Below are positions 9,198-22,921 of a stretch of DNA of 24,000 nt, one piece after another. Every line of letters begins with the position of its first letter. Position 1 is the first letter of the stretch. Source of the DNA: Eubacteriales bacterium (GTDB taxonomy: Bacteria; Bacillota; Clostridia; Tissierellales; GPF-1); assembly GCA_030625815.1 (NCBI GenBank), contig DAOUQF010000007.1, forward strand, positions 59,166 through 83,165, read 5' to 3'. The position numbers and the translations under genes are program-made. A model generated the notes under the pieces. That model was given only the letters and a program-made list of their open reading frames with translations, was not told where the DNA came from and searched no databases.

Positions 9198-9680
9198 TTA
9201 TAGCATAATTTTATCTGCTTTGGACCAAGAGAGGAATCGCTGAATCAGTTGATAATCCGGGGGATTCCATAGTTCCATTTCCGGCAGAGCGAAAATGGGA
9301 AATCGCTTGATTTCCAGCGACTCGTCGTCATGGACATGGGGGCTTCCCTCCCATGATTGACAGACAAAGAGACAGGCGACATTATAGACCTGATCTCCAT
9401 TGGGATATTCGTGGAACAAGGCTTCCCCCGCTTCCACCCCAATCAATTCGAGTGCTATCGCTCGAACCCCAGACTCTTCCAACAATTCTCGCTTTGCGGT
9501 ATCTTCCGGCTGTTCGCCAAATTCCATGGCACCCCCAAAGATTCCCCAACACCCATTGTCGGATCTTTTTTGCATCACAATCTCTCCGGCAGCGGGATCA
9601 TATAAGACAACCCCGGCGCCCGGCATAAAGATCGGTTTTTTTCCTACATATTTTCGGATTTCCTGGACATAATTCGCCAC
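9198..9680 (-). CDS. NUDIX hydrolase
   Basis: It has the Nudix box GGAMEFGEQPEDTAKRELLEESGV (GX5EX7REUXEEXGU). The start is a GTG at 9680, preceded by GGAGGAG 8 nt upstream. The start overlaps the 3' end of the RND gene by 37 nt. Confidence 0.88.
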   Translation of the reverse strand: MANYVQEIRKYVGKKPIFMPGAGVVLYDPAAGEIVMQKRSDNGCWGIFGGAMEFGEQPEDTAKRELLEESGVRAIALELIGVEAGEALFHEYPNGDQVYNVACLFVCQSWEGSPHVHDDESLEIKRFPIFALPEMELWNPPDYQLIQRFLSWSKADKIML

Positions 9681-12600
9681 TCTTTTCTCTCCTCCATCAA
9701 ACTGTATACAACCGGAATCACAATCAGGGTCAATACGGTTGCCACCATTAAGCCAAAAATCAAGGCGATGCTCATGGGCTGGAACAAACTGCTCCCCCCA
9801 ACCGCCAAAGGAATCAACCCAATCACCGTCGTTGTTGTCGACAAAAGGATGGGACGAATCCGTTTATTGACCGCTTCCCGACATGCCTTTTGAACGTCGT
9901 GGCCCTGCGATCGCTCGAAATTAATGAAATCAATCAAAACGATCGCATTATTTACAACAATTCCCATTAAGGATACCATACCCAACAGCGCTGTAAAAGA
10001 GAGGGGCTGCCGGAAGATCGTCAGTCCTAAAATCGAACCGACCAAGGACAGCGGTACCGTCGCCATAATAATAACTGGCTGCAGGAAAGAATTGAACTGC
10101 ACCAAAAGAATCAAGAACACCAAAGCCAAAGACAAAAATCCCAAGGGAATCAAGTCGCCAAAATAGCGATTGACGGATTCTCGTTCCCCATCATAAGAAA
10201 ATCCAATCCCGTTCCAATCCCGTTTATTCAATTCCGCTTCCAGCTGATTTTCTATGGAGATCGGATCATATCCCTTCGCCGCATTGGCATAGACAGAAAT
10301 AATCCGCTTTCCATCCTCATGGCGAATAATCGGCAATTCGCTCTTCAATTCAACATCGGCAATCTGCTTGAGCAAGATCTTGTTTCCCGTCATCTGCGAG
10401 TAGATCGCCAAGTTCTCCAAGTCGTCAAGGGTATCCATGGTGCTGACCAGACGAATATTCGACTCCCTGCCCTCTTCACGGAAAACCGATACATCCCGGC
10501 CTCTGAGGGCCAAGTTCATTTCATTTTGAATGTCATACTTGGTGATTCCCAAAGCAGCGGCGCGATCCGTATCCACATCCAGATAATACTCGTAGATTCG
10601 ATTGACCGCATTATTTCCCACCTCGATAGCTCCCGGAATACGGATCAAAATCTCCTGCACATCCTTTGCAAAACTCGCCAATTCCGACAGATCGTCGCCG
10701 ATCAATTTAACCGACACACCGTAGACCCGCGGCTCCGCCAGCTGCAATTGACGCACAAAGGCTTGTCCGCCCACCAATTCTTGATCCAGCTTCCGCTGCA
10801 ATCCATTCACCAAATCCTGTTGTTCCTTAAAGATTTTCGATTCCTCCAGAGAATAGCGGAGAACAACCTGAGAATAATCCGACGAGCGAATCGGCGGACT
10901 CAAGGTCGTGGCGAATTTCGGAAATCCGTCGCCAATCACCTGGCTGACTTTTCCCACTTCCGAAAACTCCTTCATCATGGATACAGCTTGATCCGATACA
11001 GCTTCCGTACGGGCGAGATCCCCATCAACTTCCGAATATATATCGACATACAATAGATCCGTATCCTTAAATGGAAATACACTCATGGTCAAGAACAAAG
11101 CCAGGCTGCCAATGGCAACGGATGCCGCCAAAACCGCGACCAGGGTCCGTCCCCGCTGCTTCATGGCTCGATCCAATAACCTTCCGTAAAAATCACGCAC
11201 CCGGCTCTTTCGAAACCGCCCATGGCTCGGTTTAAAGAACATGAAAGCAAATGTCGGCGTCACCAATAGAGCGATTGCGTAAGACGCCACAAGAGCCATC
11301 ATCACCACCAACGGCAATGCATGCATATATTTCCCCGCGGTATTGTTTAAGAGCAGGAACGGCGCGTAGGCCGCAATTGTAGTCATGGTAGAGGTCAGGA
11401 TCGGAATCGCAACCTCCTTCACTCCGTCCACACAGGATCGAAGGCGATCCTCCCCTGCATCAATCCGCAATTGAATGGCATCGCTCACCACGATGGCATT
11501 GTCCACCAGCATCCCCAAGGCAATAATCAGGGAGGCAATGGAAATCTCGTGGATCTTCAAACCCAATCCATCCATGCCCAAGAAGGTCATCGCAATGGAC
11601 AAGGGAATCGCCAAAGAAACAATAATTGCATTTCTAGGCCCCATCCCCACCAAGACCACCAGAATGACAAGCAGAATCCCCATGATCAGGTTGACCATAA
11701 ACTCATTCACTGCCGTTTCAACGTCATCCGGCTGATAGACGATGGTATCAAACCGCAAATCCTCCGGCAGGTCGGCTTTTAAGGCTTCAATCGTTTCATC
11801 GACTGTATCACCGATGGTGATCACATTTTTTCCCGACTCGAAATACCCCGTCAACAAAAGGGTCGGCACACCGTCATGCTTCACCTTGTAATTGGAAGAA
11901 GCCGGAACGAATTTCACCTCGGCAATATCCTTCAATCGAACGATCGCACCGCTATCCGGCGATCCGAACACAATGGTGTTGGCAATCTCGTCGAGTTCCG
12001 AGTACATGCCCGTGGCACTGACTTGAATTTTTCCGTACTCATCCTCAATCACGCCAGATGGAATCGCCAAATTTGATGCGACAATCAACTGCGACAATTG
12101 ATGATAGGAAAGGTTGTATTGATTCATCTTTTGAAAATCGACAAGAATTTGCAATTCCTCTTCCTGCTTGCCGGTAATCTTAAACCGGCTCACCCCATCA
12201 ATGGAAGTCAACGCTTCCTTCACCTGTTCCGCATAGATCTCCATTTCTTCATAGGTATAATGCGTGCTTGACAAGGAAATCAACATCCCCGCGGTGGAGA
12301 TCAGATCCGTATTCACCTCAACGGGCAGCGCAAACTCCGGCAGCTCCGCCTGCAGATCGGTCATCCGCCAACGCAACTCCGCCCAGGTTTCATCAATTCC
12401 TTCATCACTCACGCTTTCCTTCAGTTTAATCACCACAACGGAAACAGAGTTCTTCGATTGTGAAGTCACTTTATCGATTCCCTCCAACGCGCCGACCTCA
12501 TCCTCGATCCGTTTGGTGACCATCTTTTCAATATCGTCCGGACTCGCTCCCGGATACACGCAATACACCATGGCATAGGGTGCGCTGATATCCGGCGATT

Positions 12601-12712
12601 CTTGTTTCGGCAGTTCGATATAGCGAACGAATCCAAAAATCAGCAAAAAAATCACGAGGGTAATGGTGACTCGTCTTCGTTGAATGGCTCCTGCGATTAT
12701 TCCTCGTTTCAT
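9644..12712 (-). CDS. RND-family efflux transporter permease (AcrB/AcrD/AcrF superfamily)
   Basis: This is a 1022-aa ORF. It has the 12-TM, two-large-loop architecture and an N-terminus (RRRVTITLVIFLLIFGFVRYIELPKQESPDI) typical of RND pumps. The start forms an ATGA overlap with the adaptor gene stop. Confidence 0.93.
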   Translation of the reverse strand: MKRGIIAGAIQRRRVTITLVIFLLIFGFVRYIELPKQESPDISAPYAMVYCVYPGASPDDIEKMVTKRIEDEVGALEGIDKVTSQSKNSVSVVVIKLKESVSDEGIDETWAELRWRMTDLQAELPEFALPVEVNTDLISTAGMLISLSSTHYTYEEMEIYAEQVKEALTSIDGVSRFKITGKQEEELQILVDFQKMNQYNLSYHQLSQLIVASNLAIPSGVIEDEYGKIQVSATGMYSELDEIANTIVFGSPDSGAIVRLKDIAEVKFVPASSNYKVKHDGVPTLLLTGYFESGKNVITIGDTVDETIEALKADLPEDLRFDTIVYQPDDVETAVNEFMVNLIMGILLVILVVLVGMGPRNAIIVSLAIPLSIAMTFLGMDGLGLKIHEISIASLIIALGMLVDNAIVVSDAIQLRIDAGEDRLRSCVDGVKEVAIPILTSTMTTIAAYAPFLLLNNTAGKYMHALPLVVMMALVASYAIALLVTPTFAFMFFKPSHGRFRKSRVRDFYGRLLDRAMKQRGRTLVAVLAASVAIGSLALFLTMSVFPFKDTDLLYVDIYSEVDGDLARTEAVSDQAVSMMKEFSEVGKVSQVIGDGFPKFATTLSPPIRSSDYSQVVLRYSLEESKIFKEQQDLVNGLQRKLDQELVGGQAFVRQLQLAEPRVYGVSVKLIGDDLSELASFAKDVQEILIRIPGAIEVGNNAVNRIYEYYLDVDTDRAAALGITKYDIQNEMNLALRGRDVSVFREEGRESNIRLVSTMDTLDDLENLAIYSQMTGNKILLKQIADVELKSELPIIRHEDGKRIISVYANAAKGYDPISIENQLEAELNKRDWNGIGFSYDGERESVNRYFGDLIPLGFLSLALVFLILLVQFNSFLQPVIIMATVPLSLVGSILGLTIFRQPLSFTALLGMVSLMGIVVNNAIVLIDFINFERSQGHDVQKACREAVNKRIRPILLSTTTTVIGLIPLAVGGSSLFQPMSIALIFGLMVATVLTLIVIPVVYSLMEERKEWRIMSRKSENM

Positions 12713-13851
12713 TCTTCCATCTCCCGCACGGACACGGTCTGCCCTTCTTCTACATAGGCCATTCCCATGACAACGACTTGATCCCCCGGTTCAATCCCGT
12801 CCACTTCGACAAAGGTGTTCTCAATTTCCTTTCGAATAATGGCTTTTTTATGGATCTCGCCGTTTTCCACCACATAGACATAGTCGCCAGTCTCGTCATT
12901 CATAATTCCTTGAATGGGAATTTGTATTGCCTGTACGCGCTTCAAAATCAGATCCACATTCACAATGGTTCCCAGGCGAAGATCCGACTCCTCCAATTTC
13001 ACCTGCACTTCATAGGTAAGGGTCGCCGAATCCGGCACTTCCGCGATCCAATCGACGGTTCCGGAACAGACTTTCTCCCCAAAGGTACATCTCGCAAGCT
13101 GTCCAACCTGCAGATCCACCACTTCATCTTGAGTGGCAAAGAGTCGAACGCGGCTTTCTGCATCCCGCATAACAATCACGGGATATCCCGCCCCCACAAA
13201 TTCTCCGGGTTCGTTCAGGATACTCACCACATAGCCCGGCGCCGTCGCTCGAATGACACTCTCGTCGGCAATTTTACCCGCACCCGCGAAACCCGCTTGC
13301 GCCTGCTCCCAGACCTGATACGCCGCATTGCGGTCTTCGATCAGGGTATCCAATTGCAGCTTGGCTTGATCCCGTTCAAAAGCTGAAACCGCACCCGATT
13401 GATAAAGGATTTCCATCTTCTCATAGGTATCCCGCGCAAAATTCACAGCAGCGCTTGCTTTTTCAACTTGAGACCGTGCCGCCTCCCATTGAGCGCGGCT
13501 TGCATCCACCTGCAATTGCACCGTTTCCGGATCCAATGTCGCCAAAATTTGATCGGCTTCCACCCAGTCTCCTTCCGTGACTGCAATGGAATCGACCTTC
13601 CCATTGGCAGGAAAACTCAACTTCTGCAAACTCTCCGTATCTATAATGCCGATATAGCCGTAGGCACGCTCCACCAATTCCGTTTCCGCCGTAATCACTC
13701 GAACACTCACTGGAATTGTTTCTTCCAGGGGTTCCGGCTCACATCCCGACAACACAAAAATCCCTATGACCATCATCATAAGGAAAAAAATTCCGTTCCA
13801 TTTCTTTTGTCCTCTCATTTTGTCCATCCCCAATCGTAAACGCTTGTTCAT
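12709..13851 (-). CDS. RND efflux adaptor (membrane-fusion protein, HlyD family) lipoprotein
   Basis: It has the lipobox VLSGC, a coiled-coil hairpin region (QVDASRAQWEAARSQVEKA...) and beta-barrel C-terminal parts typical of MFPs. The true start is probably the ATG at 13818 (MRGQKKWNG, RBS GGGGA), because the predicted promoter would leave the 13851 ATG with almost no leader. Confidence 0.88.
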   Translation of the reverse strand: MNKRLRLGMDKMRGQKKWNGIFFLMMMVIGIFVLSGCEPEPLEETIPVSVRVITAETELVERAYGYIGIIDTESLQKLSFPANGKVDSIAVTEGDWVEADQILATLDPETVQLQVDASRAQWEAARSQVEKASAAVNFARDTYEKMEILYQSGAVSAFERDQAKLQLDTLIEDRNAAYQVWEQAQAGFAGAGKIADESVIRATAPGYVVSILNEPGEFVGAGYPVIVMRDAESRVRLFATQDEVVDLQVGQLARCTFGEKVCSGTVDWIAEVPDSATLTYEVQVKLEESDLRLGTIVNVDLILKRVQAIQIPIQGIMNDETGDYVYVVENGEIHKKAIIRKEIENTFVEVDGIEPGDQVVVMGMAYVEEGQTVSVREMEE

Positions 13852-13893: not shown

Positions 13894-13922
13894 TAAAAAA
13901 AGAAGCTGATGAATCAGCTTCT
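13892..13922 (-). terminator. rho-independent terminator of the HAD-fusion gene
   Basis: On the minus strand, AGAAGCTGA-ttca-TCAGCTTCT is followed by TTTTTTTATT. The stop codon lies inside the stem. Confidence 0.7.
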
Positions 13923-15146
13923 CAAGAATTCTTCGATTCGGTTCATCAGCACCTCTGGATCATCGGTTCCTTGCGACAATTTCTCAATGGGACAAAGATC
14001 ATCCCTGGTCCGATTCATAACAAAGGGAGAGACCTCTTCATAGGCGAAAGCTGAAAATTTCTCTTCTTTACATACAGCCAAAGCAGACTCGCTGATCACA
14101 AAGGTATACAAGGAACGGATTCCCGCCGATAGAGCCAGTATCGCAGCCGCTCGCCCAATCACGCGATCCGCAAGCACGGCGCCCGTCAAATCCACATCGG
14201 ACAACAGGGCTTCATACATGGGGCGAATCCCCTTCTTCCGGCTCTCGAACAACACTTCTCCATCCCGAACAAAAGCAAGGGTGCAGTTATTCTCCTTTAG
14301 ATAGGAAACCGCCAGTTCTTGATCCGCTTTCAACCCTGCATCAACGATCTCTTCCACCGCTTCAATCATGGCTGCGACAGCCGATTCCGTATGCGGCGGC
14401 ATCACCCGCGCGGCAATCTCTTTTAATCGCGGATTGGCATTTTCGACACACCAGCCATTGGTCACCGTCTGCAGCATGGCATAGTCATTCATATTATCCC
14501 CCAGGACAAAGACCTTCTCTGGGTCCATACGCAAACCTCGAATCACAAATTCCAGTGCCTCGCCCTTGGATACGCCCTTCGGCAGCAATTCCAGGGTCGT
14601 TTCATAAGACTGCACAATCTCAACCTTACTGGTCTGTTCCCGCAGGTAGGCTTCCAATTGCGGCAGCTCCTCCGTCTCGACAGAGAATAATACCTTGGCC
14701 CAAGATTCTCCCAGTTCCGACAATTGCCTTCTCGGCAAGGTATTGGTGCGATAAAGATCCGGATCTCTTCGGAAAATCTCATTCTCGCGAACCATAAAGA
14801 TCTGCCCTTTGGCAACGGCCATCACTCCGGACTGAGGGAACTCTTCCATTACGTGTCCGGCAAAACTTTCAATTTGATGCGGCAAAAACCGTTCCATAAT
14901 CATAAAATCGGAATTGAAATCATAAATCATTCCGCCATTGGAAACAATGGCCGGCACATTCATGATCAGCTCGTCCAAAAAGGGTTCAATCTCTTCCCGG
15001 ATCCGTCCCGTGGCAACGGTGAATCGTCCTCCGTTCTCAATAAAATATCGAATCGCCTCCGCGTTTTTCTCACTTACCTGATGCTCCTCGTTTAATAAGG
15101 TGCCATCAAGGTCTGAAACTATTAAATAACCTGTGAACTTTCCCAT
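13914..15146 (-). CDS. fusion protein: Cof-type HAD-IIB phosphatase (N-terminal ~270 aa) plus a DUF1893 (TM1506-like) domain (C-terminal ~135 aa)
   Basis: The N-terminal part has HAD motif I (VSDLDGTLL), a cap region, and motif IV (LGDNMNDYAML). The C-terminal part (NCTLAFVRDGEVLFESRKKGIRPMY...LADRVIGRAAAILAL...DDLCPIEKL) matches the DUF1893 pattern as I remember it. Confidence 0.82.
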   Translation of the reverse strand: MGKFTGYLIVSDLDGTLLNEEHQVSEKNAEAIRYFIENGGRFTVATGRIREEIEPFLDELIMNVPAIVSNGGMIYDFNSDFMIMERFLPHQIESFAGHVMEEFPQSGVMAVAKGQIFMVRENEIFRRDPDLYRTNTLPRRQLSELGESWAKVLFSVETEELPQLEAYLREQTSKVEIVQSYETTLELLPKGVSKGEALEFVIRGLRMDPEKVFVLGDNMNDYAMLQTVTNGWCVENANPRLKEIAARVMPPHTESAVAAMIEAVEEIVDAGLKADQELAVSYLKENNCTLAFVRDGEVLFESRKKGIRPMYEALLSDVDLTGAVLADRVIGRAAAILALSAGIRSLYTFVISESALAVCKEEKFSAFAYEEVSPFVMNRTRDDLCPIEKLSQGTDDPEVLMNRIEEFLRS

Positions 15147-15264: not shown

Positions 15265-15294
15265 TTGACACCCCTTTCCAACTCCCCGTATTAT
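15265..15294 (+). promoter_or_regulatory. candidate sigma-A promoter of the MotAB-like pair
   Basis: TTGACA (15265-15270) is followed by an 18-nt spacer and TATTAT (15289-15294). It lies about 50 nt upstream of the start at 15344. Confidence 0.5.
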
Positions 15295-15343
15295 GGAGAT
15301 AGTATTTGACTTTTTAATGGAGTCATCCTAAGGAGGAAAAAAG

Positions 15344-16297
15344 ATGTTTGACTTAATTCAACAATTAAACCCTTTAGCCATAACGATTATAACATTAATC
15401 GTCGTGGTATTTCTATCGGCATTTATTTCCACGATCGTTGTGCGAAATCGCTACGCCAAAATCAGTCGGGATTTTCATAGAAATCATAAATTAACGAATC
15501 CTAATTTTTCCGAAATCGTTCTGACAAAGATTACGGAAGACTATCGAAAAGCCGCGGAATCCAACGGACCCGATGTCAATACCCAAGCCATTATCGAAAA
15601 ACACTTCAACAACGAGCATGACGCCTTGGCCCTCGGGGAACGGTTTGTCAAGCAAGCGACTTCCATTATGATCATTCTCGGTCTATTGGGTACTTTCTAT
15701 GGTTTGACTCTTTCCATCAGCGAATTGGTCAACCTCTTGAGCAATGGCGGCGGCATGGAGTTCACCAATGTAGAAGGCGTGGTTACCGGACTGATTGATT
15801 CGGTCCAAGGCATGAGCGTCGCCTTTGTCACTTCCCTCTTCGGCATTACCGGCTCTATCATCCTAACGATTCTTTCCACCTTCGCCAATATCGGCACCGT
15901 GCGGGAAACCCTATTGATCGAAATCGAATCATACTTGGACAACGTGGTCGCAAAGGACTACTCGACTCGCATGCAAGAAGAATATCAAATGCTGGCGCAA
16001 GCCGTTCAACAAGTATTCGACCGCTACGGCGATCAATTGTCCAATGACTTGATCCATTTGGCTCAAGATTCCACGATTCAATTGACGAAGACGACAACAG
16101 AGCTTCACACCTCTTCAAAAGCGTTGATGCAAGCCATCTCAATGTTTGCGGCATCCTTGGAAACATTCTCGGACAACACCCGAGACTTGACGGAATTCAA
16201 CCACCACTTGAAGACCAATATCGAACGGATGAATGTAAGTTTTGCAGATTTTACAGATACGCTGAAAGATACAACAGACAACGTCCAGAGTGCGTAA
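15344..16297 (+). CDS. MotA/TolQ/ExbB-family proton-channel-like membrane protein with a C-terminal helical tail
   Basis: This is a 317-aa ORF. It has an N-terminal TM helix (residues ~9-33), then a TM pair carrying ILGLLGTFYGL and AFVTSLFGITGSIIL, which resemble the GLxGTVxGI and AxxTTxxGLxxAIP cores of ExbB/TolQ/MotA. A ~130-aa polar helical C-terminus follows. The RBS is AAGGAGGA. Confidence 0.8.
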   Translation: MFDLIQQLNPLAITIITLIVVVFLSAFISTIVVRNRYAKISRDFHRNHKLTNPNFSEIVLTKITEDYRKAAESNGPDVNTQAIIEKHFNNEHDALALGERFVKQATSIMIILGLLGTFYGLTLSISELVNLLSNGGGMEFTNVEGVVTGLIDSVQGMSVAFVTSLFGITGSIILTILSTFANIGTVRETLLIEIESYLDNVVAKDYSTRMQEEYQMLAQAVQQVFDRYGDQLSNDLIHLAQDSTIQLTKTTTELHTSSKALMQAISMFAASLETFSDNTRDLTEFNHHLKTNIERMNVSFADFTDTLKDTTDNVQSA

Positions 16298-16310
16298 GGA
16301 GTGATCAGCG

Positions 16311-17258
16311 ATGAAAATGCGACGCAGAAATTTTAAAGAAATAGAAGAGGCACCGAATTTTTGGCCCTCGTTTACAGATATGATCTCCACAATCGCCTTG
16401 ATTCTTTTTTTCCTGATGCTTCTGTCTTATGTTCAAAATATCATTACCGGAACCAATCTGAAAACAAAAGAAGAACAATTACAGCTTGCCAATGCGGATA
16501 TCCAAGAGACCAAGAAAGAATTGATGATCCTGGAAGATCAATTGGACGAGCTCAATGCAGAGATCGACGAGGGACAAAGAATCCTGCAACTTTCCTTGAT
16601 TCAGATGTCCGAGCAGCAGAAGATTATCGGCAACTCCAATCGAGAATTAGCAGAGCTTAGAATCAAGCTTGATCAATTGGCAGCCCTTCGATTCGAAGTT
16701 CTGGAAGCCGTCAAGCAATCCATTGAGGAGGAATTGGGCGGATTCACAGCCAACGGCGAATCGGTTGTCACCATCGGAGAGAATGGAAACATCATTCTCA
16801 ACAGCAGCGTCTTGTTTGCTCCAAGCTCCACAGTAATTACAGAAGACGGCCAAGCGCTTATTGGAAAATTGGCGGACGCCTTCGAGAATATCCTGGATGA
16901 TGAATCCATTCGACAATTTATCGATGTGATTGAGATTCAAGGCCATACGGACAAGCGCCCGGGCATGAGTCCAAACCGAGAATTGTCCACTGACCGCGCG
17001 ACAGCTGTTACGAATTATATGGCTTCTGTCAATCCAAGTCTGGAAACCAAGTACGGCGAATATATCGCAGCATCCGGATACTCGGAATACCGACCGATCG
17101 ATCCAGGCACAACGGAAGAAGCCTGGGCGAAGAATCGACGCATCGAGATTGCCATCGGTTTGAAGGATCCAAACCTTCAAAATTTGATCAACGAATACCT
17201 CAATGGAACCGATCAATTGATGGGCATTGCCTCAGCACCATCGGATGATTCCAACTAA
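16311..17258 (+). CDS. MotB/OmpA-family protein: TM with a conserved Asp, a long coiled coil, and an OmpA-like peptidoglycan-binding domain
   Basis: This is a 315-aa ORF. FWPSFTDMISTIALILFFLMLL parallels the MotB plug/TM segment with its protonatable Asp. Residues ~50-140 are heptad-rich (EEQLQLANADIQETKKELMILEDQLDELNAEIDEGQRIL...). The C-terminus has IEIQGHTDKRP, NRELSTDRATAV and NRRIEIAI, which are the OmpA_C signature. Confidence 0.85.
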   Translation: MKMRRRNFKEIEEAPNFWPSFTDMISTIALILFFLMLLSYVQNIITGTNLKTKEEQLQLANADIQETKKELMILEDQLDELNAEIDEGQRILQLSLIQMSEQQKIIGNSNRELAELRIKLDQLAALRFEVLEAVKQSIEEELGGFTANGESVVTIGENGNIILNSSVLFAPSSTVITEDGQALIGKLADAFENILDDESIRQFIDVIEIQGHTDKRPGMSPNRELSTDRATAVTNYMASVNPSLETKYGEYIAASGYSEYRPIDPGTTEEAWAKNRRIEIAIGLKDPNLQNLINEYLNGTDQLMGIASAPSDDSN

Positions 17259-17266
17259 ATGAAGTC

Positions 17267-17308
17267 AAAAAAAGAAGGTTCCCGTTAACAAACGGAAACC
17301 TTCTTTTT
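17267..17308. terminator. bidirectional terminator between the convergent MotB-like and MATE genes
   Basis: GAAGGTTCCCGTT-aaca-AACGGAAACCTTC forms 12 bp with 1 mismatch. It is flanked by AAAAAAA (17267-17273) and TTTTT (17304-17308). Confidence 0.8.
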
Positions 17309-20243: not shown

Positions 20244-21608
20244 TTATTTTTCAGCCTGCTTGATTCCAGCCGGTGATTCTTTCCAGACTTTATCGGCTAC
20301 CGGTGCCCAACCGCTTGCAATCGGATTGCACTTGTTCATCAAAAACTCTGAGGATTCATGGTCGCCAAGTTGTGTGGAATGAGCGCCTGACTCCATCACC
20401 ATCTCATGGATCATCGTCGGATTGTCAAGAATTGGACAAGGACGAAGATGGTTGCAGTTAAATGGCTGTCGCGCCGCATAGGCTTTAAAAATTGGCGATG
20501 CCAAGGCTTCTTTTAGACTGACATCTTTAATATTCGTGTCCGAGTAGTGAACAAAAGCACAAGGTTCCACATCCCCTGCCGCATTGATATGGAAGTAATT
20601 TCTTCCGCCGGCAATACAGCCGTCGACATATTCTCCATCGTTCCAGAAATCCATAAAGAACATCGGCTTATTCTTTCTCATCTCCCGAACGCGGTCATAC
20701 ATAAACGATCGTTCGTCCGGTCGCGTGACGAGATCCAAATTCGCGTCTTTTCCAATCGGCATATAGGTGAACAACCACATAAAGAATGCACCCAACTCCA
20801 ACATGTCGTCTGTGAATTTCTCCGCGCCGATCTCTCGGTAATTGAAGTGATGATAGCATGTCGATACCCCGAAGAATACCCCTCGCTTCTGCAAGAGTCG
20901 CATGCCGCGGGTTACGCCTTTGTATGTGCCTTCTCCCCGTCGGAAATCTGTGGCTGCTTCATCGCCTTCCACACTGAAAGCAAAGGTCAAGTTGCCCACT
21001 TCGGCGATCTGATCGGCAAATTTCTCATCGATCAAAGTGCCATTGGTAAAGGCTAGGAAGAAACAATCGTCATGCCGTCTTGCCAATTCGATCAAGTCGT
21101 CTTTTCTGACCGTTGGCTCGCCGCCTGAATATAAGTAAACGTAAATTCCAAGTTCTTTTCCTTCTTGAATAATTCGATCCAATGTCTCCAGCGGCAAATC
21201 GTTATGTTGATCGTATTCCGCCGCCCAGCATCCCGTACACTTCAGATTGCATTTCGCCGTTGGATCCATCAAAATTGTCCATGGAATTCGAACACCTAAT
21301 TCTTTTTGCAATTCATTTTTCTTCGGAATGCCAAAAACAACCGAATTCAAAAAGAAATTCACCGCAAACTTTCTCTGCATCTTGGGATTGACAGTCTTAA
21401 AAAATTGATGAATGGTCTTTGACCATGGATTTTCTGGATCCTTTAAGCCTTCCTGAGCGGTCTTGATTACGTTAATGTCCCTCGGGTTGGTTGCAAATTT
21501 TTCAGCCAATTTCAAGATCTTCGGAAGATTTTTCTCCGGATCTGCATTCAAATACTTTACTGCCTGCTGTACCGCGATCTGACTGCCAAACTCTTTAATC
21601 GACTTCAT
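20244..21608 (-). CDS. radical SAM enzyme with a ~110-aa N-terminal extension and a twitch/SPASM-like C-terminal Cys domain
   Basis: It has the CX3CX2C motif CNLKCTGCW and a GGEP-like block (YSGGEPTV). The C-terminus has C-X18-C with GDVEPC (GX4C), then CNHLRPC. The subfamily was not recognised. Confidence 0.9.
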   Translation of the reverse strand: MKSIKEFGSQIAVQQAVKYLNADPEKNLPKILKLAEKFATNPRDINVIKTAQEGLKDPENPWSKTIHQFFKTVNPKMQRKFAVNFFLNSVVFGIPKKNELQKELGVRIPWTILMDPTAKCNLKCTGCWAAEYDQHNDLPLETLDRIIQEGKELGIYVYLYSGGEPTVRKDDLIELARRHDDCFFLAFTNGTLIDEKFADQIAEVGNLTFAFSVEGDEAATDFRRGEGTYKGVTRGMRLLQKRGVFFGVSTCYHHFNYREIGAEKFTDDMLELGAFFMWLFTYMPIGKDANLDLVTRPDERSFMYDRVREMRKNKPMFFMDFWNDGEYVDGCIAGGRNYFHINAAGDVEPCAFVHYSDTNIKDVSLKEALASPIFKAYAARQPFNCNHLRPCPILDNPTMIHEMVMESGAHSTQLGDHESSEFLMNKCNPIASGWAPVADKVWKESPAGIKQAEK

Positions 21609-22207
21609 TTCACTATCCCCTTTCGTTTTATGCCGTTCAATAAAATATGCATGGTTTCCAAATACTCATCAATTGTCGGCGTCTCATCGCCCATAAGAAT
21701 CGCCAACGATTCCACAACCGCCAGTAACATGGAAGCCAATGCTTTTCCGTTGATGCTCGGCAGAATTTCGCCTGCATCCTTTGCCCTTTTCAATAACATT
21801 TCAACTCTGTTGAGAATCTGATCCGAAAGCCTAAAAATCTCATCCTCCAATTCTTGATCGGTTCGATGGATCACCATCCAAAAATCAAGGAAGCGATTGC
21901 TGACGATGCTCTCATCCAGATTCTTAACCAAATACTCCAACAACCGTTCCAATCGATCAAGATTCGGCAGGTCCAAAGCCAAAACCCGGTCGACCTGTTC
22001 TTCAAAAAAAACATAGGCTCGCTTCACGATATAATAATAGATCTCATCCTTGTTGCGAAAATATTTATATAGGGAAGTTCTGCCCATTCCCGTCGCCTTC
22101 GCGATATCCTTCAAATTGGTTTGATAATAGCCTTTCTTAGCGAATATCTCAATGGCATCGCTGGCAATTTCCAATCGCTTTTCTTCATAATCAATAATCT
22201 TTGGCAT
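21605..22207 (-). CDS. TetR/AcrR-family transcriptional regulator
   Basis: It has the HTH block FAKKGYYQTNLKDIAKATGMGRTSLYKYFRNKDEIY. I favour the ATG at 22207 (MPKIIDYEEKR, RBS GAGGGGATGAGG) over the ORF-track start at 22240. The stop forms an ATGA overlap with the radical SAM start. Confidence 0.88.
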   Translation of the reverse strand: MPKIIDYEEKRLEIASDAIEIFAKKGYYQTNLKDIAKATGMGRTSLYKYFRNKDEIYYYIVKRAYVFFEEQVDRVLALDLPNLDRLERLLEYLVKNLDESIVSNRFLDFWMVIHRTDQELEDEIFRLSDQILNRVEMLLKRAKDAGEILPSINGKALASMLLAVVESLAILMGDETPTIDEYLETMHILLNGIKRKGIVK

Positions 22208-22246
22208 AAACTGCCTCATCCCCTCATTGCCAATTTCCATACATCT

Positions 22247-22483: not shown

Positions 22484-22921
22484 ATGAAGAAACAAGCTGG
22501 TTTTACCTTGCTTGAATTGATTGTTGTACTCGCCATACTCGGAATTATTTTATCGATTGCTGTACCCAATTATCTGGGAATCAATGAAAACGCGAACAAT
22601 AGCGCGCAAGGCGTGCAAGCGGCTTTGATCGCGAAAAGCCTGCAGCAGGAATTTGCCGATGATTTTGCATCCGTCAACGAATCCGAAACCAAGTTGTATG
22701 TAGAAATTGACGGATCTGATGAAGTTGTTGTTGGAGGAAAAATCGACGAAGACGCTCCAATCCGTAGTCATCTCTGCTTTACCTATATTCAAGAGGGTGA
22801 TGTGCTAACCTACCCCTATTTCCATTTTGATCTTGATACCGCGAGCGACACCCTGACGATTAAGTATATGAAATCCGCCAGTGACGAACTCCCAAATCTG
22901 GCAACCGTCAATTACTATTGA
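22484..22921 (+). CDS. type IV pilin-like / pseudopilin protein with a prepilin N-terminal cleavage-methylation motif
   Basis: MKKQAGFTLLELIVVLAILGIILSIAVPNY is a canonical class III signal (G/FTLLE) followed by a hydrophobic alpha1 helix. The RBS is AAGGGAGGG. Confidence 0.85.
   Translation: MKKQAGFTLLELIVVLAILGIILSIAVPNYLGINENANNSAQGVQAALIAKSLQQEFADDFASVNESETKLYVEIDGSDEVVVGGKIDEDAPIRSHLCFTYIQEGDVLTYPYFHFDLDTASDTLTIKYMKSASDELPNLATVNYY

Follow-up and report, generated by a model that had tools for sequence, protein, structure and literature searches.

Sequence and structural comparison of a two-gene operon in a 24,000-nucleotide stretch of clostridial DNA (Eubacteriales bacterium, assembly GCA_030625815.1, contig DAOUQF010000007.1, positions 59,166 to 83,165; hereafter the window) indicates that its products, proteins A and B, belong to the MotA/ExbB/TolQ superfamily of 5:2 ion-driven motors. 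The operon is a self-contained unit at positions 15265-17308 of the window, with both genes on the plus strand in the window's list of open reading frames (ORFs). We propose that the pair probably forms a ZorAB-type A5B2 ion-driven rotary motor, a housekeeping device of monoderm Clostridia that would sit in the cytoplasmic membrane, be anchored to the wall and signal through its tail. To our knowledge, all tailed ZorAB-type 5:2 motors described so far are phage sensors, the majority from diderms. If true, an effector-less and vertically inherited ZorAB-like pair in Clostridia would represent a second, non-defence use of this motor design. The two genes are as follows.

15344-16297, plus strand: gene A, a ZorA/ExbB-like subunit of 317 amino acids with three transmembrane (TM) helices and a cytoplasmic helical tail (ORF, Pfam, PADLOC, NCBIfam, homologues, AlphaFold 2 [AF2] model, Foldseek)
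16311-17258, plus strand: gene B, a ZorB/MotB-like subunit of 315 amino acids (ORF, Pfam, PADLOC, NCBIfam, homologues, AF2 model)

The superfamily assignment draws on a MotA_ExbB domain or fold in A, an Asp in the TM helix of B, and a Thr and a Ser in TM2 and TM3 of A. An earlier, sequence-only reading of this DNA had called the pair an orphan MotA/ExbB-like and MotB/OmpA-like stator unit. With respect to the MotA_ExbB profile (PF01618), this claim holds for the family, while the window protein itself falls marginally short: A matches at an E-value of 8.4e-5 with 22.8 bits, just below the cutoff of 22.9, whereas its homologues P0075 and P0052 pass with 28.7 and 27.0 bits, and many further homologues carry precomputed PF01618 assignments. 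In the AF2 monomer model of A (alignment of 64 sequences; predicted local distance difference test score, pLDDT, of 79.6), TM1 spans residues 10-47, TM2 residues 93-134 and TM3 residues 142-181, followed by an uninterrupted tail helix at residues 183-316. Two short cytoplasmic helices lie between TM1 and TM2, the TM2-TM3 loop comprises about 30 residues, and the model contains no beta strands. The predicted layout, with a tail of 134 residues, agrees with the N-terminal TM helix, channel-forming TM pair and roughly 130-residue helical tail that had been read from the sequence. The heptad power of the tail was 43.6, versus 6.8 ± 6.7 in permuted controls.

15620-15886, plus strand: residues 93-181 of A, the TM2-loop-TM3 channel core with T117 (in GTFYGL) and S164 (in FVTSLFG), from alignments
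15890-16291, plus strand: residues 183-316 of A, a single long cytoplasmic helix of 134 residues, about 20 nm if extended, from the AF2 model

A Foldseek search with the A model matched ExbB, TolQ and ZorA (probability 1.00, E-values of about 1e-4 to 1e-3), with neither MotA nor PomA among the 50 matches listed. Likewise, the A-family profile reached ZorA alone among solved structures in the PDB (1.5e-7), and did not reach MotA or PomA even at E<=1. Both searches bear out the earlier placement of A closer to ExbB/ZorA than to the four-TM flagellar MotA. PADLOC ZorA models aligned only with TM2-TM3 of A (best E-value 3.4e-10), and the NCBIfam model antiphage_ZorA_2 scored A at 31.6 bits against a cutoff of 100.

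The AF2 monomer model of B (pLDDT 76) consists of one continuous helix at residues 18-142, followed by an OmpA-like alpha/beta domain at residues 150-285, and can be divided into three parts.

16362-16436, plus strand: residues 18-42 of B, a TM helix with Asp23 (codon 16377-16379) in NFWPSFTD, from the alignment and the AF2 model
16437-16736, plus strand: residues 43-142 of B, an extracellular coiled-coil stalk of about 100 residues and about 15 nm, from the AF2 model and heptad power
16758-17165, plus strand: residues 150-285 of B, an OmpA-like peptidoglycan-binding domain (GHTD...N..LS..RA...NRRIEI), from Pfam, the alignment and the AF2 model

This architecture matches the one first read from the sequence, a TM helix with a protonatable Asp, a coiled coil (put at about 90 residues, about 100 by AF2) and an OmpA-like domain. 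The heptad power of the stalk was 69, versus 10.8 ± 10.3 in permuted controls, and its length is conserved in the alignment throughout the family. Pfam OmpA matched B at 1.3e-11, with the core residues of the domain invariant in the alignment. The plug expected of a MotB-type subunit (MotB_plug, PF13677) gave no match in B at E<=1. PADLOC ZorB1, for which PADLOC holds no curated cutoff, covered the full length of B at 3.2e-30, with the stalk as an insertion of about 100 residues; this match and the PADLOC ZorA matches count in favour of ZorA/ZorB homology. The best solved match of B was 8VVN_B, the ZorB of Shewanella type I Zorya (PMC11890865), with flagellar MotB, MotS and PomB ranking next. 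Among NCBIfam models, the PRK09039 'peptidoglycan-binding protein' models (NF006542-NF006546) matched B best (6.8e-30). This match extends over both the stalk and the OmpA-like domain (B 48-281 versus model 124-346), but its 105 bits lie well under the cutoff of 305, and the models have a longer N-terminal part. The PRK09039 models are probably mainly alphaproteobacterial.

The motifs highlighted in the sequence-only reading were located at A 113-121 (GLLGTFYGL), A 160-174 (AFVTSLFGITGSIIL) and B 21-26 (FTDMIS), and together they hold the residues of the putative ion path. Asp23 of B is invariant in 30 of 30 aligned sequences, and T117 and S164 of A in all 64. In a hidden Markov model alignment, T147 of EcZorA, which lies in GTFYGL, corresponds to T117 of A, and S184 of EcZorA to S164. 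In Zorya, T147 and S184 of ZorA form the ion-selectivity filter and Asp26 of ZorB is essential (PMC11946911); Asp23 of B is the counterpart of this Asp26. The core of the earlier proposal, an ion-driven stator-like A/B unit, is sustained by the ZorA and ZorB profile matches, the Foldseek result and these invariant residues.

The description of the pair as an orphan does not hold. Judging by sequence, the pair defines a large and conserved Clostridial family that is uncharacterised: clusters of homologues at 90% identity number more than 1000 for A and more than 1800 for B, with 40-57% identity across many Clostridial genera, and an exhaustive search with the A profile returned about 100 clusters at 50% identity (E<=1e-30). 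Both genes are real, as these numbers attest. For neighbourhood analysis, 80 loci were fetched from species-representative genomes, the ORFs of all were clustered, and 81 loci were compared. Gene A is followed by an adjacent, co-directional gene B in 79 of the 81, with a median gap of about 18 nt, so that the pair is conserved in related genomes. The clustered loci contain no third gene common to the whole family and no flagellar, chemotaxis, Ton/Tol or Zorya-effector gene adjoining the pair, and genes of these kinds were all missing from five Pfam-annotated contexts. The earlier statement that the pair has no partner genes is correct in the window and family-wide, but not in one clade, where a TPR gene is linked to it (see below).

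The distribution of the family is that of a vertically inherited gene. The window is syntenic with its nearest genome, Gottschalkiaceae bacterium SANA (Tissierellales, Bacillota), a placement that agrees with the monoderm host assumed at the outset. The number of flanking clusters shared with other loci falls with the identity of A, from 6.5 (>85%) to 4.2 (70-85%), 2.5 (60-70%) and 0.3 (50-60%), a smooth decay of synteny. No family members were found in 72,556 plasmids, 50,697 phage genomes or IMG/VR viral contigs, and PADLOC detected nothing among the window neighbours beyond generic NUDIX and radical-SAM folds. The smooth decay, the lack of plasmid, phage and viral members and the PADLOC result all speak against a mobile defence cassette. 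Upstream of the operon, an extended -10 box of the sigma-A type (TGnTAYAMT) occurs in 31 of 80 family loci, against 2.5 expected, while no sigma-D site was found in the 80 upstream regions and crude sigma-E, F/G, K and H patterns were not enriched there. Vertical inheritance, sigma-A promoters, the lack of effectors and absence from mobile elements thus argue for a housekeeping transducer rather than an anti-phage system. A sporulation-specific function was considered but is not supported, as YunB lies upstream in only 3 loci and the sporulation-sigma patterns show no enrichment. Two-component systems are present in several contexts, informally judged to be no more frequent than genomes with many of them would give, and their enrichment near the pair was set aside.

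Each of the known motor groups, ExbBD/TolQR, flagellar stators and Zorya, has defining features that were tested and that the pair lacks, and we therefore place it outside all three. In the ExbB-ExbD and TolQ-TolR motors, ExbB and TolQ have the three-TM topology in common with A and come closest in fold to its membrane part (Foldseek E about 1e-4, template-modelling score, TM-score, up to 0.57). However, the sequence profile of the A family does not reach ExbB or TolQ in the PDB, and A bears a long C-terminal tail. Furthermore, B is of the OmpA type and not of the ExbD/TolR type, no TonB or TolA gene lies near the pair, and the host has no outer membrane; these last three features rule out a Ton or Tol motor.

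Flagellar MotAB, MotPS and PomAB resemble the pair in the Asp of the B-type TM helix, the OmpA-like wall anchor and the A-B operon order, and B gives matches of 1e-13 to 1e-15 with the NCBIfam MotD, MotB and MotS models. Along with the database label 'chemotaxis protein MotB' on B and a pilin-like gene 5 kb away in the window, these matches could be taken to favour a motility stator, whether a second MotPS-like flagellar stator or a gliding or pilus motor. We consider such a role very improbable, since A has three TM helices rather than four and lacks the large torque-generating cytoplasmic loop of MotA, MotA and PomA were missed by both the profile and the fold searches described above, no plug was detected in B, the upstream regions are devoid of sigma-D sites, and the pilin-like gene is not a conserved neighbour in the 81 loci. 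The case that the sequence-only reading had raised against itself, an ordinary MotAB or MotPS stator tied to fli or flg genes, was rejected on the same features of A and B and on the annotated contexts, in which no fli, flg or che gene is present. Current database labels of the family ('MotA/TolQ/ExbB proton channel', 'chemotaxis protein MotB', 'OmpA family') wrongly suggest motility.

Comparison with Zorya was made against the structures of the type I systems of E. coli (8QYD) and Shewanella ANA-3 (8VVN) and the type II system of S. kujiense (8VVI). As in Zorya, A is a three-TM subunit with a C-terminal helical cytoplasmic tail and with T117 (TM2) and S164 (TM3) at the positions of the ZorA filter residues, B combines an N-terminal TM helix and its Asp with an OmpA-like peptidoglycan-binding domain, and gene A precedes gene B. 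ZorA and ZorB are, moreover, the best sequence matches of the pair among solved structures and defence models. Beyond these shared features, the two systems diverge in several respects. Genes for ZorC/D, ZorE or ZorF/G were found neither in the 81 loci nor by PADLOC among the window neighbours and for the TPR partner. The tail of A measures 134 residues versus roughly 280-500 in ZorA, where it runs from residue 236 to 696 in the Shewanella type I protein and from residue 100 to 378 in that of type II (PMC11890865); long tails occur in all Zorya subtypes, and their truncation abolishes defence (PMC11946911). The stalk of B is 100 residues long, whereas the peptidoglycan-binding domain of ZorB is joined to its TM helix without a linker (PMC11946911). 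The cytoplasmic domain of A is all-helical in the model, whereas beta strands have been reported in that of Zorya-type proteins (PMC12505986). Finally, A reaches only about a third of the NCBIfam ZorA cutoff, and the family passes vertically through monoderm Clostridia instead of travelling on islands, with housekeeping neighbours in the window. Zorya is under-represented in single-membrane bacteria (PMC11946911). A canonical Zorya system was therefore rejected, given the lack of effectors, of a family-level ZorA score, of a long tail, of a linkerless ZorB and of a mobile distribution.

A reduced version of the same idea is a minimal or split Zorya-like anti-phage system, in which A and B, like ZorAB, would detect harm done to the wall by phages and switch on an effector whose gene lies elsewhere in the genome. 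It draws on ZorA and ZorB being the nearest characterised homologues of both proteins, on distant long-tailed relatives that lie in defence-like units (see below), and on a conserved block in the tail of A that could recruit an effector. Still, we regard it as unlikely in view of the missing effectors in the 81 loci, the negative PADLOC results for the TPR partner and, generic folds aside, the window neighbours, the short tail of A set against the truncation results in Zorya, the stalk of B and the scarcity of Zorya in monoderms. Slow synteny decay, absence from plasmids, phages and viral contigs, and 40-57% identity across families, which is high for a defence gene, weigh in the same direction. 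Of the two options left by the sequence-only reading, a minimal Zorya-like sensor or a new envelope module, distribution and architecture disfavour the former, and a housekeeping envelope module is favoured.

The distant relatives in question are 450-750 residues long (e.g. P0315 and P0334), contain the GLLGTF motif in TM2 and score 110-145 bits on the A-family profile, above the 40-71 bits they reach on PADLOC ZorA models. They differ from A in their much longer tails, in the absence of the collar motif and conserved tail block described below, and in a short, stalkless B partner of 221-234 residues. Two loci (L086:6076-10533 and L084:2187-6006, with A of 621-669 residues) provided informative contexts: in one, a DUF4145-NYN gene is followed by A of 621 and then B of 221 residues, and in the other, A of 669 and B of 234 residues precede an uncharacterised protein of 365 residues. 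These long-tailed relatives may be undescribed Zorya-like defence variants. ZorA-like motors appear to form a spectrum, within which the window family would be the branch that has a short tail and a stalk on B but lacks an effector.

In addition to the ion path, A contains a conserved block near the end of its tail.

16124-16252, plus strand: residues 261-303 of A, the conserved tail block with the consensus F..SL..F.ENTRDFSEFNHHLKTNI.RMNV.F.DF, from near-invariant alignment columns

The preceding shaft of the tail (residues 201-260) is poorly conserved, and the block starts exactly 83 residues past a membrane-proximal collar motif (E-E/S-Y-L-D-N) in almost every member, that of the window included. 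Within its heptads, Phe, Leu and Met occupy a positions and Asn, Phe, Ile and Ser d/e positions, while R280 (f), E284 (c) and H287/H288 are invariant or near-invariant residues that face outward. Comparison of the block with solved proteins returned coiled-coil noise only. Its conservation, outward-facing residues and fixed spacing from the collar suggest that the block may serve as a docking site for a cytoplasmic partner encoded elsewhere in the genome.

A natural variant of the tail is found in one clade (Thermoclostridium, Acetivibrio and relatives), in which A reaches about 490 residues because about 150 residues are appended after the tail block. A TPR-like gene encoding about 320 residues lies directly downstream of B in 26 of 26 loci with the extended tail, versus none of 50 short-tailed loci (the 26 are a subset of L038-L083; an example is L092:7532-10951 of Thermoclostridium stercorarium). 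This strict co-occurrence, too, favours a view of the tail as a docking platform. The extended-tail clade is monophyletic in a neighbour-joining tree, so the gain of the TPR gene and of the extension counts as one event, after which the two have been stably co-inherited over deep divergence. The TPR protein has 18 detectable homologue clusters and no match to PADLOC defence models. Since it is restricted to one clade and no other linked gene is common to the 81 loci, a universal linked partner was rejected.

These observations also bear on a simpler explanation, namely that the pair is a static membrane-wall tether or a gated channel for ions that delivers neither rotation nor a signal, its long helices being mere spacers. 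For tethering, a stalk and an OmpA-like domain would be enough, and no output partner has been identified in the window's own lineage. Yet the Asp/Thr/Ser ion path is invariant, the cytoplasmic block is highly conserved, with invariant residues on its surface, and keeps a constant spacing from the membrane, and the tail extension is co-inherited with the TPR gene. As a tether would need neither the ion path, nor the conserved block, nor the TPR co-inheritance, a passive role is disfavoured, and we rate it as distinctly improbable.

Based on these data, we suggest the following mechanism for the ZorAB-type motor. Two B subunits would form the axle, with the protonatable Asp23 borne by their TM helices, and their extracellular helices would form a two-stranded coiled coil, a stalk about 15 nm long that carries the OmpA-like domains to the peptidoglycan and anchors the complex. 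Such a stalked wall anchor would suit a thick Gram-positive envelope. Five A subunits would ring the B axle, with T117 and S164 lining the ion path, and their C-terminal helices would come together as a five-helix tail that reaches about 20 nm into the cytoplasm. Ion flow would then turn or strain the ring of A subunits, tail included, against the B dimer held by the wall, and the output would pass through the conserved block, 83 residues below the membrane, on which the unlinked cytoplasmic partner is predicted to dock. The pair may thereby act as a housekeeping transducer between envelope and cytoplasm, sensing or energising something tied to the state of the wall or membrane. More tentatively, the family might constitute a housekeeping class of Zorya-type rotary motors whose tail would offer its block to a conserved cytoplasmic partner. 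Such motors would be an undescribed means of mechanotransduction or of energisation linking the envelope to the cytoplasm, and perhaps a non-defence lineage that is sister or ancestral to Zorya. With two genes, a short tail, a sharply conserved block and a TPR partner in one clade, the family would offer a simple test system for the readout of tail rotation or strain, and cultured hosts exist (among them Thermoclostridium stercorarium, Alkaliphilus metalliredigens and strain SANA).

Several points weigh against the proposed housekeeping motor. The family is patchy across Clostridia, with 122 confirmed loci among species representatives in a pattern-limited scan, and the term 'core' therefore applies only within lineages. 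The ZorA match of A is weak and confined to TM2-TM3, the conservation of the tail block could instead reflect closure of the helical bundle, and the TPR gene and the tail extension became associated in a single evolutionary event. The closest characterised relatives are defence proteins and the distant long-tailed relatives adjoin nuclease-like genes, which leaves some probability to a defence role with an unlinked effector. Our literature search found no experiment on any family member, no publication on the family, and no functional work on Gram-positive ZorAB-like or stator-like pairs, PRK09039 or SANA. Precomputed assignments to PF28082/PF28175 are present on the A homologues P0052, P0072, P0086, P0090, P0099-P0101 and P0075, and a recently created, possibly relevant Pfam entry may already cover part of the family.

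At the locus itself, the promoter-like site, strong ribosome-binding sites (RBSs), 13-nt intergenic gap, terminator and unrelated minus-strand flanks described in the sequence-only reading are all present.

15265-15294, plus strand: sigma-A-type promoter-like site TTGACA-18-TATTAT, 11 of 12 positions matched
15330-15336, plus strand: RBS of gene A, AAGGAGG, read from the sequence, 7 nt before the ATG at 15344
16296-16301, plus strand: RBS of gene B, AAGGAG, read from the sequence, overlapping the stop codon of A
17269-17308, no strand assigned: hairpin terminator between an A-run and a T-run, common to the operon and the convergent MatE gene, from folding energy

The count of promoter-like matches in this region is not above chance expectation; the site at 15265-15294 is kept in the three closest genomes (L003-L005). 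The terminator hairpin folds at -20.2 kcal/mol (z = -5.6), and none of 200 shuffled sequences folded equally well. An Rfam scan of the window found no RNA element such as a riboswitch or leader RNA, which were thereby ruled out, and the window contains no tRNAs. The bordering minus-strand genes encode an HAD-DUF1893 hydrolase and a MatE transporter, both unrelated to the pair, and the rest of the window is of housekeeping character, with genes for a class II aldolase, an Opp-type ABC transporter, an acyltransferase, a NUDIX protein, a resistance-nodulation-division (RND) pump with its adaptor, RNase HII, RecU, a radical-SAM/TetR pair and a pilin-like protein.

Some of these neighbours recur around the pair. 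An RND efflux pair (AcrB-like pump and HlyD/YknX-like adaptor) lies 2-5 genes from A-B in about 12 loci, on a variable side and in variable orientation (window 9644-13851; L019, L020, L029, L030, L049, L078 and L011 are examples), and in 6 Tissierellales loci the gene immediately preceding A encodes an S-layer homology (SLH)-domain wall protein. This recurrence may reflect either lineage synteny or a functional envelope neighbourhood. The divergent upstream gene of the window (13914-15146) encodes an HAD phosphatase (Hydrolase_3/S6PP) fused to DUF1893 (TM1506), and a different HAD hydrolase is divergently encoded upstream of the operon in the Thermoclostridium clade. Further downstream, positions 20244-22240 encode a radical-SAM protein of 454 residues and a TetR protein, with weak PADLOC pVip (viperin) matches (1e-8) that probably reflect a generic fold. 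Between recU and the radical-SAM gene, SANA (L003) carries an insertion of ilvB and ilvN that the window lacks. The pilin-like gene (22484-22921) encodes a protein of 145 residues with a prepilin methylation motif (N_methyl, 4.9e-10) and resembles a type IV pilin or competence pseudopilin.

Two observations concern the hosts. The metagenome-assembled genomes labelled 'Calditrichales bacterium MX18-03' (L036) and 'delta proteobacterium ML8_F1' (L058) share flanking clusters with Clostridial loci, namely Lutisporaceae-like loci and L045/L057/L070, and their taxonomic labels are therefore probably wrong. The named hosts include many haloalkaliphiles or halophiles (Alkaliphilus, Natronincola, Tindallia, Anoxynatronum, Thermohalobacter, Maledivibacter halophilus, Sporosalibacterium and SANA, the last from a saline lake), and Na+ rather than H+ could drive the motor.

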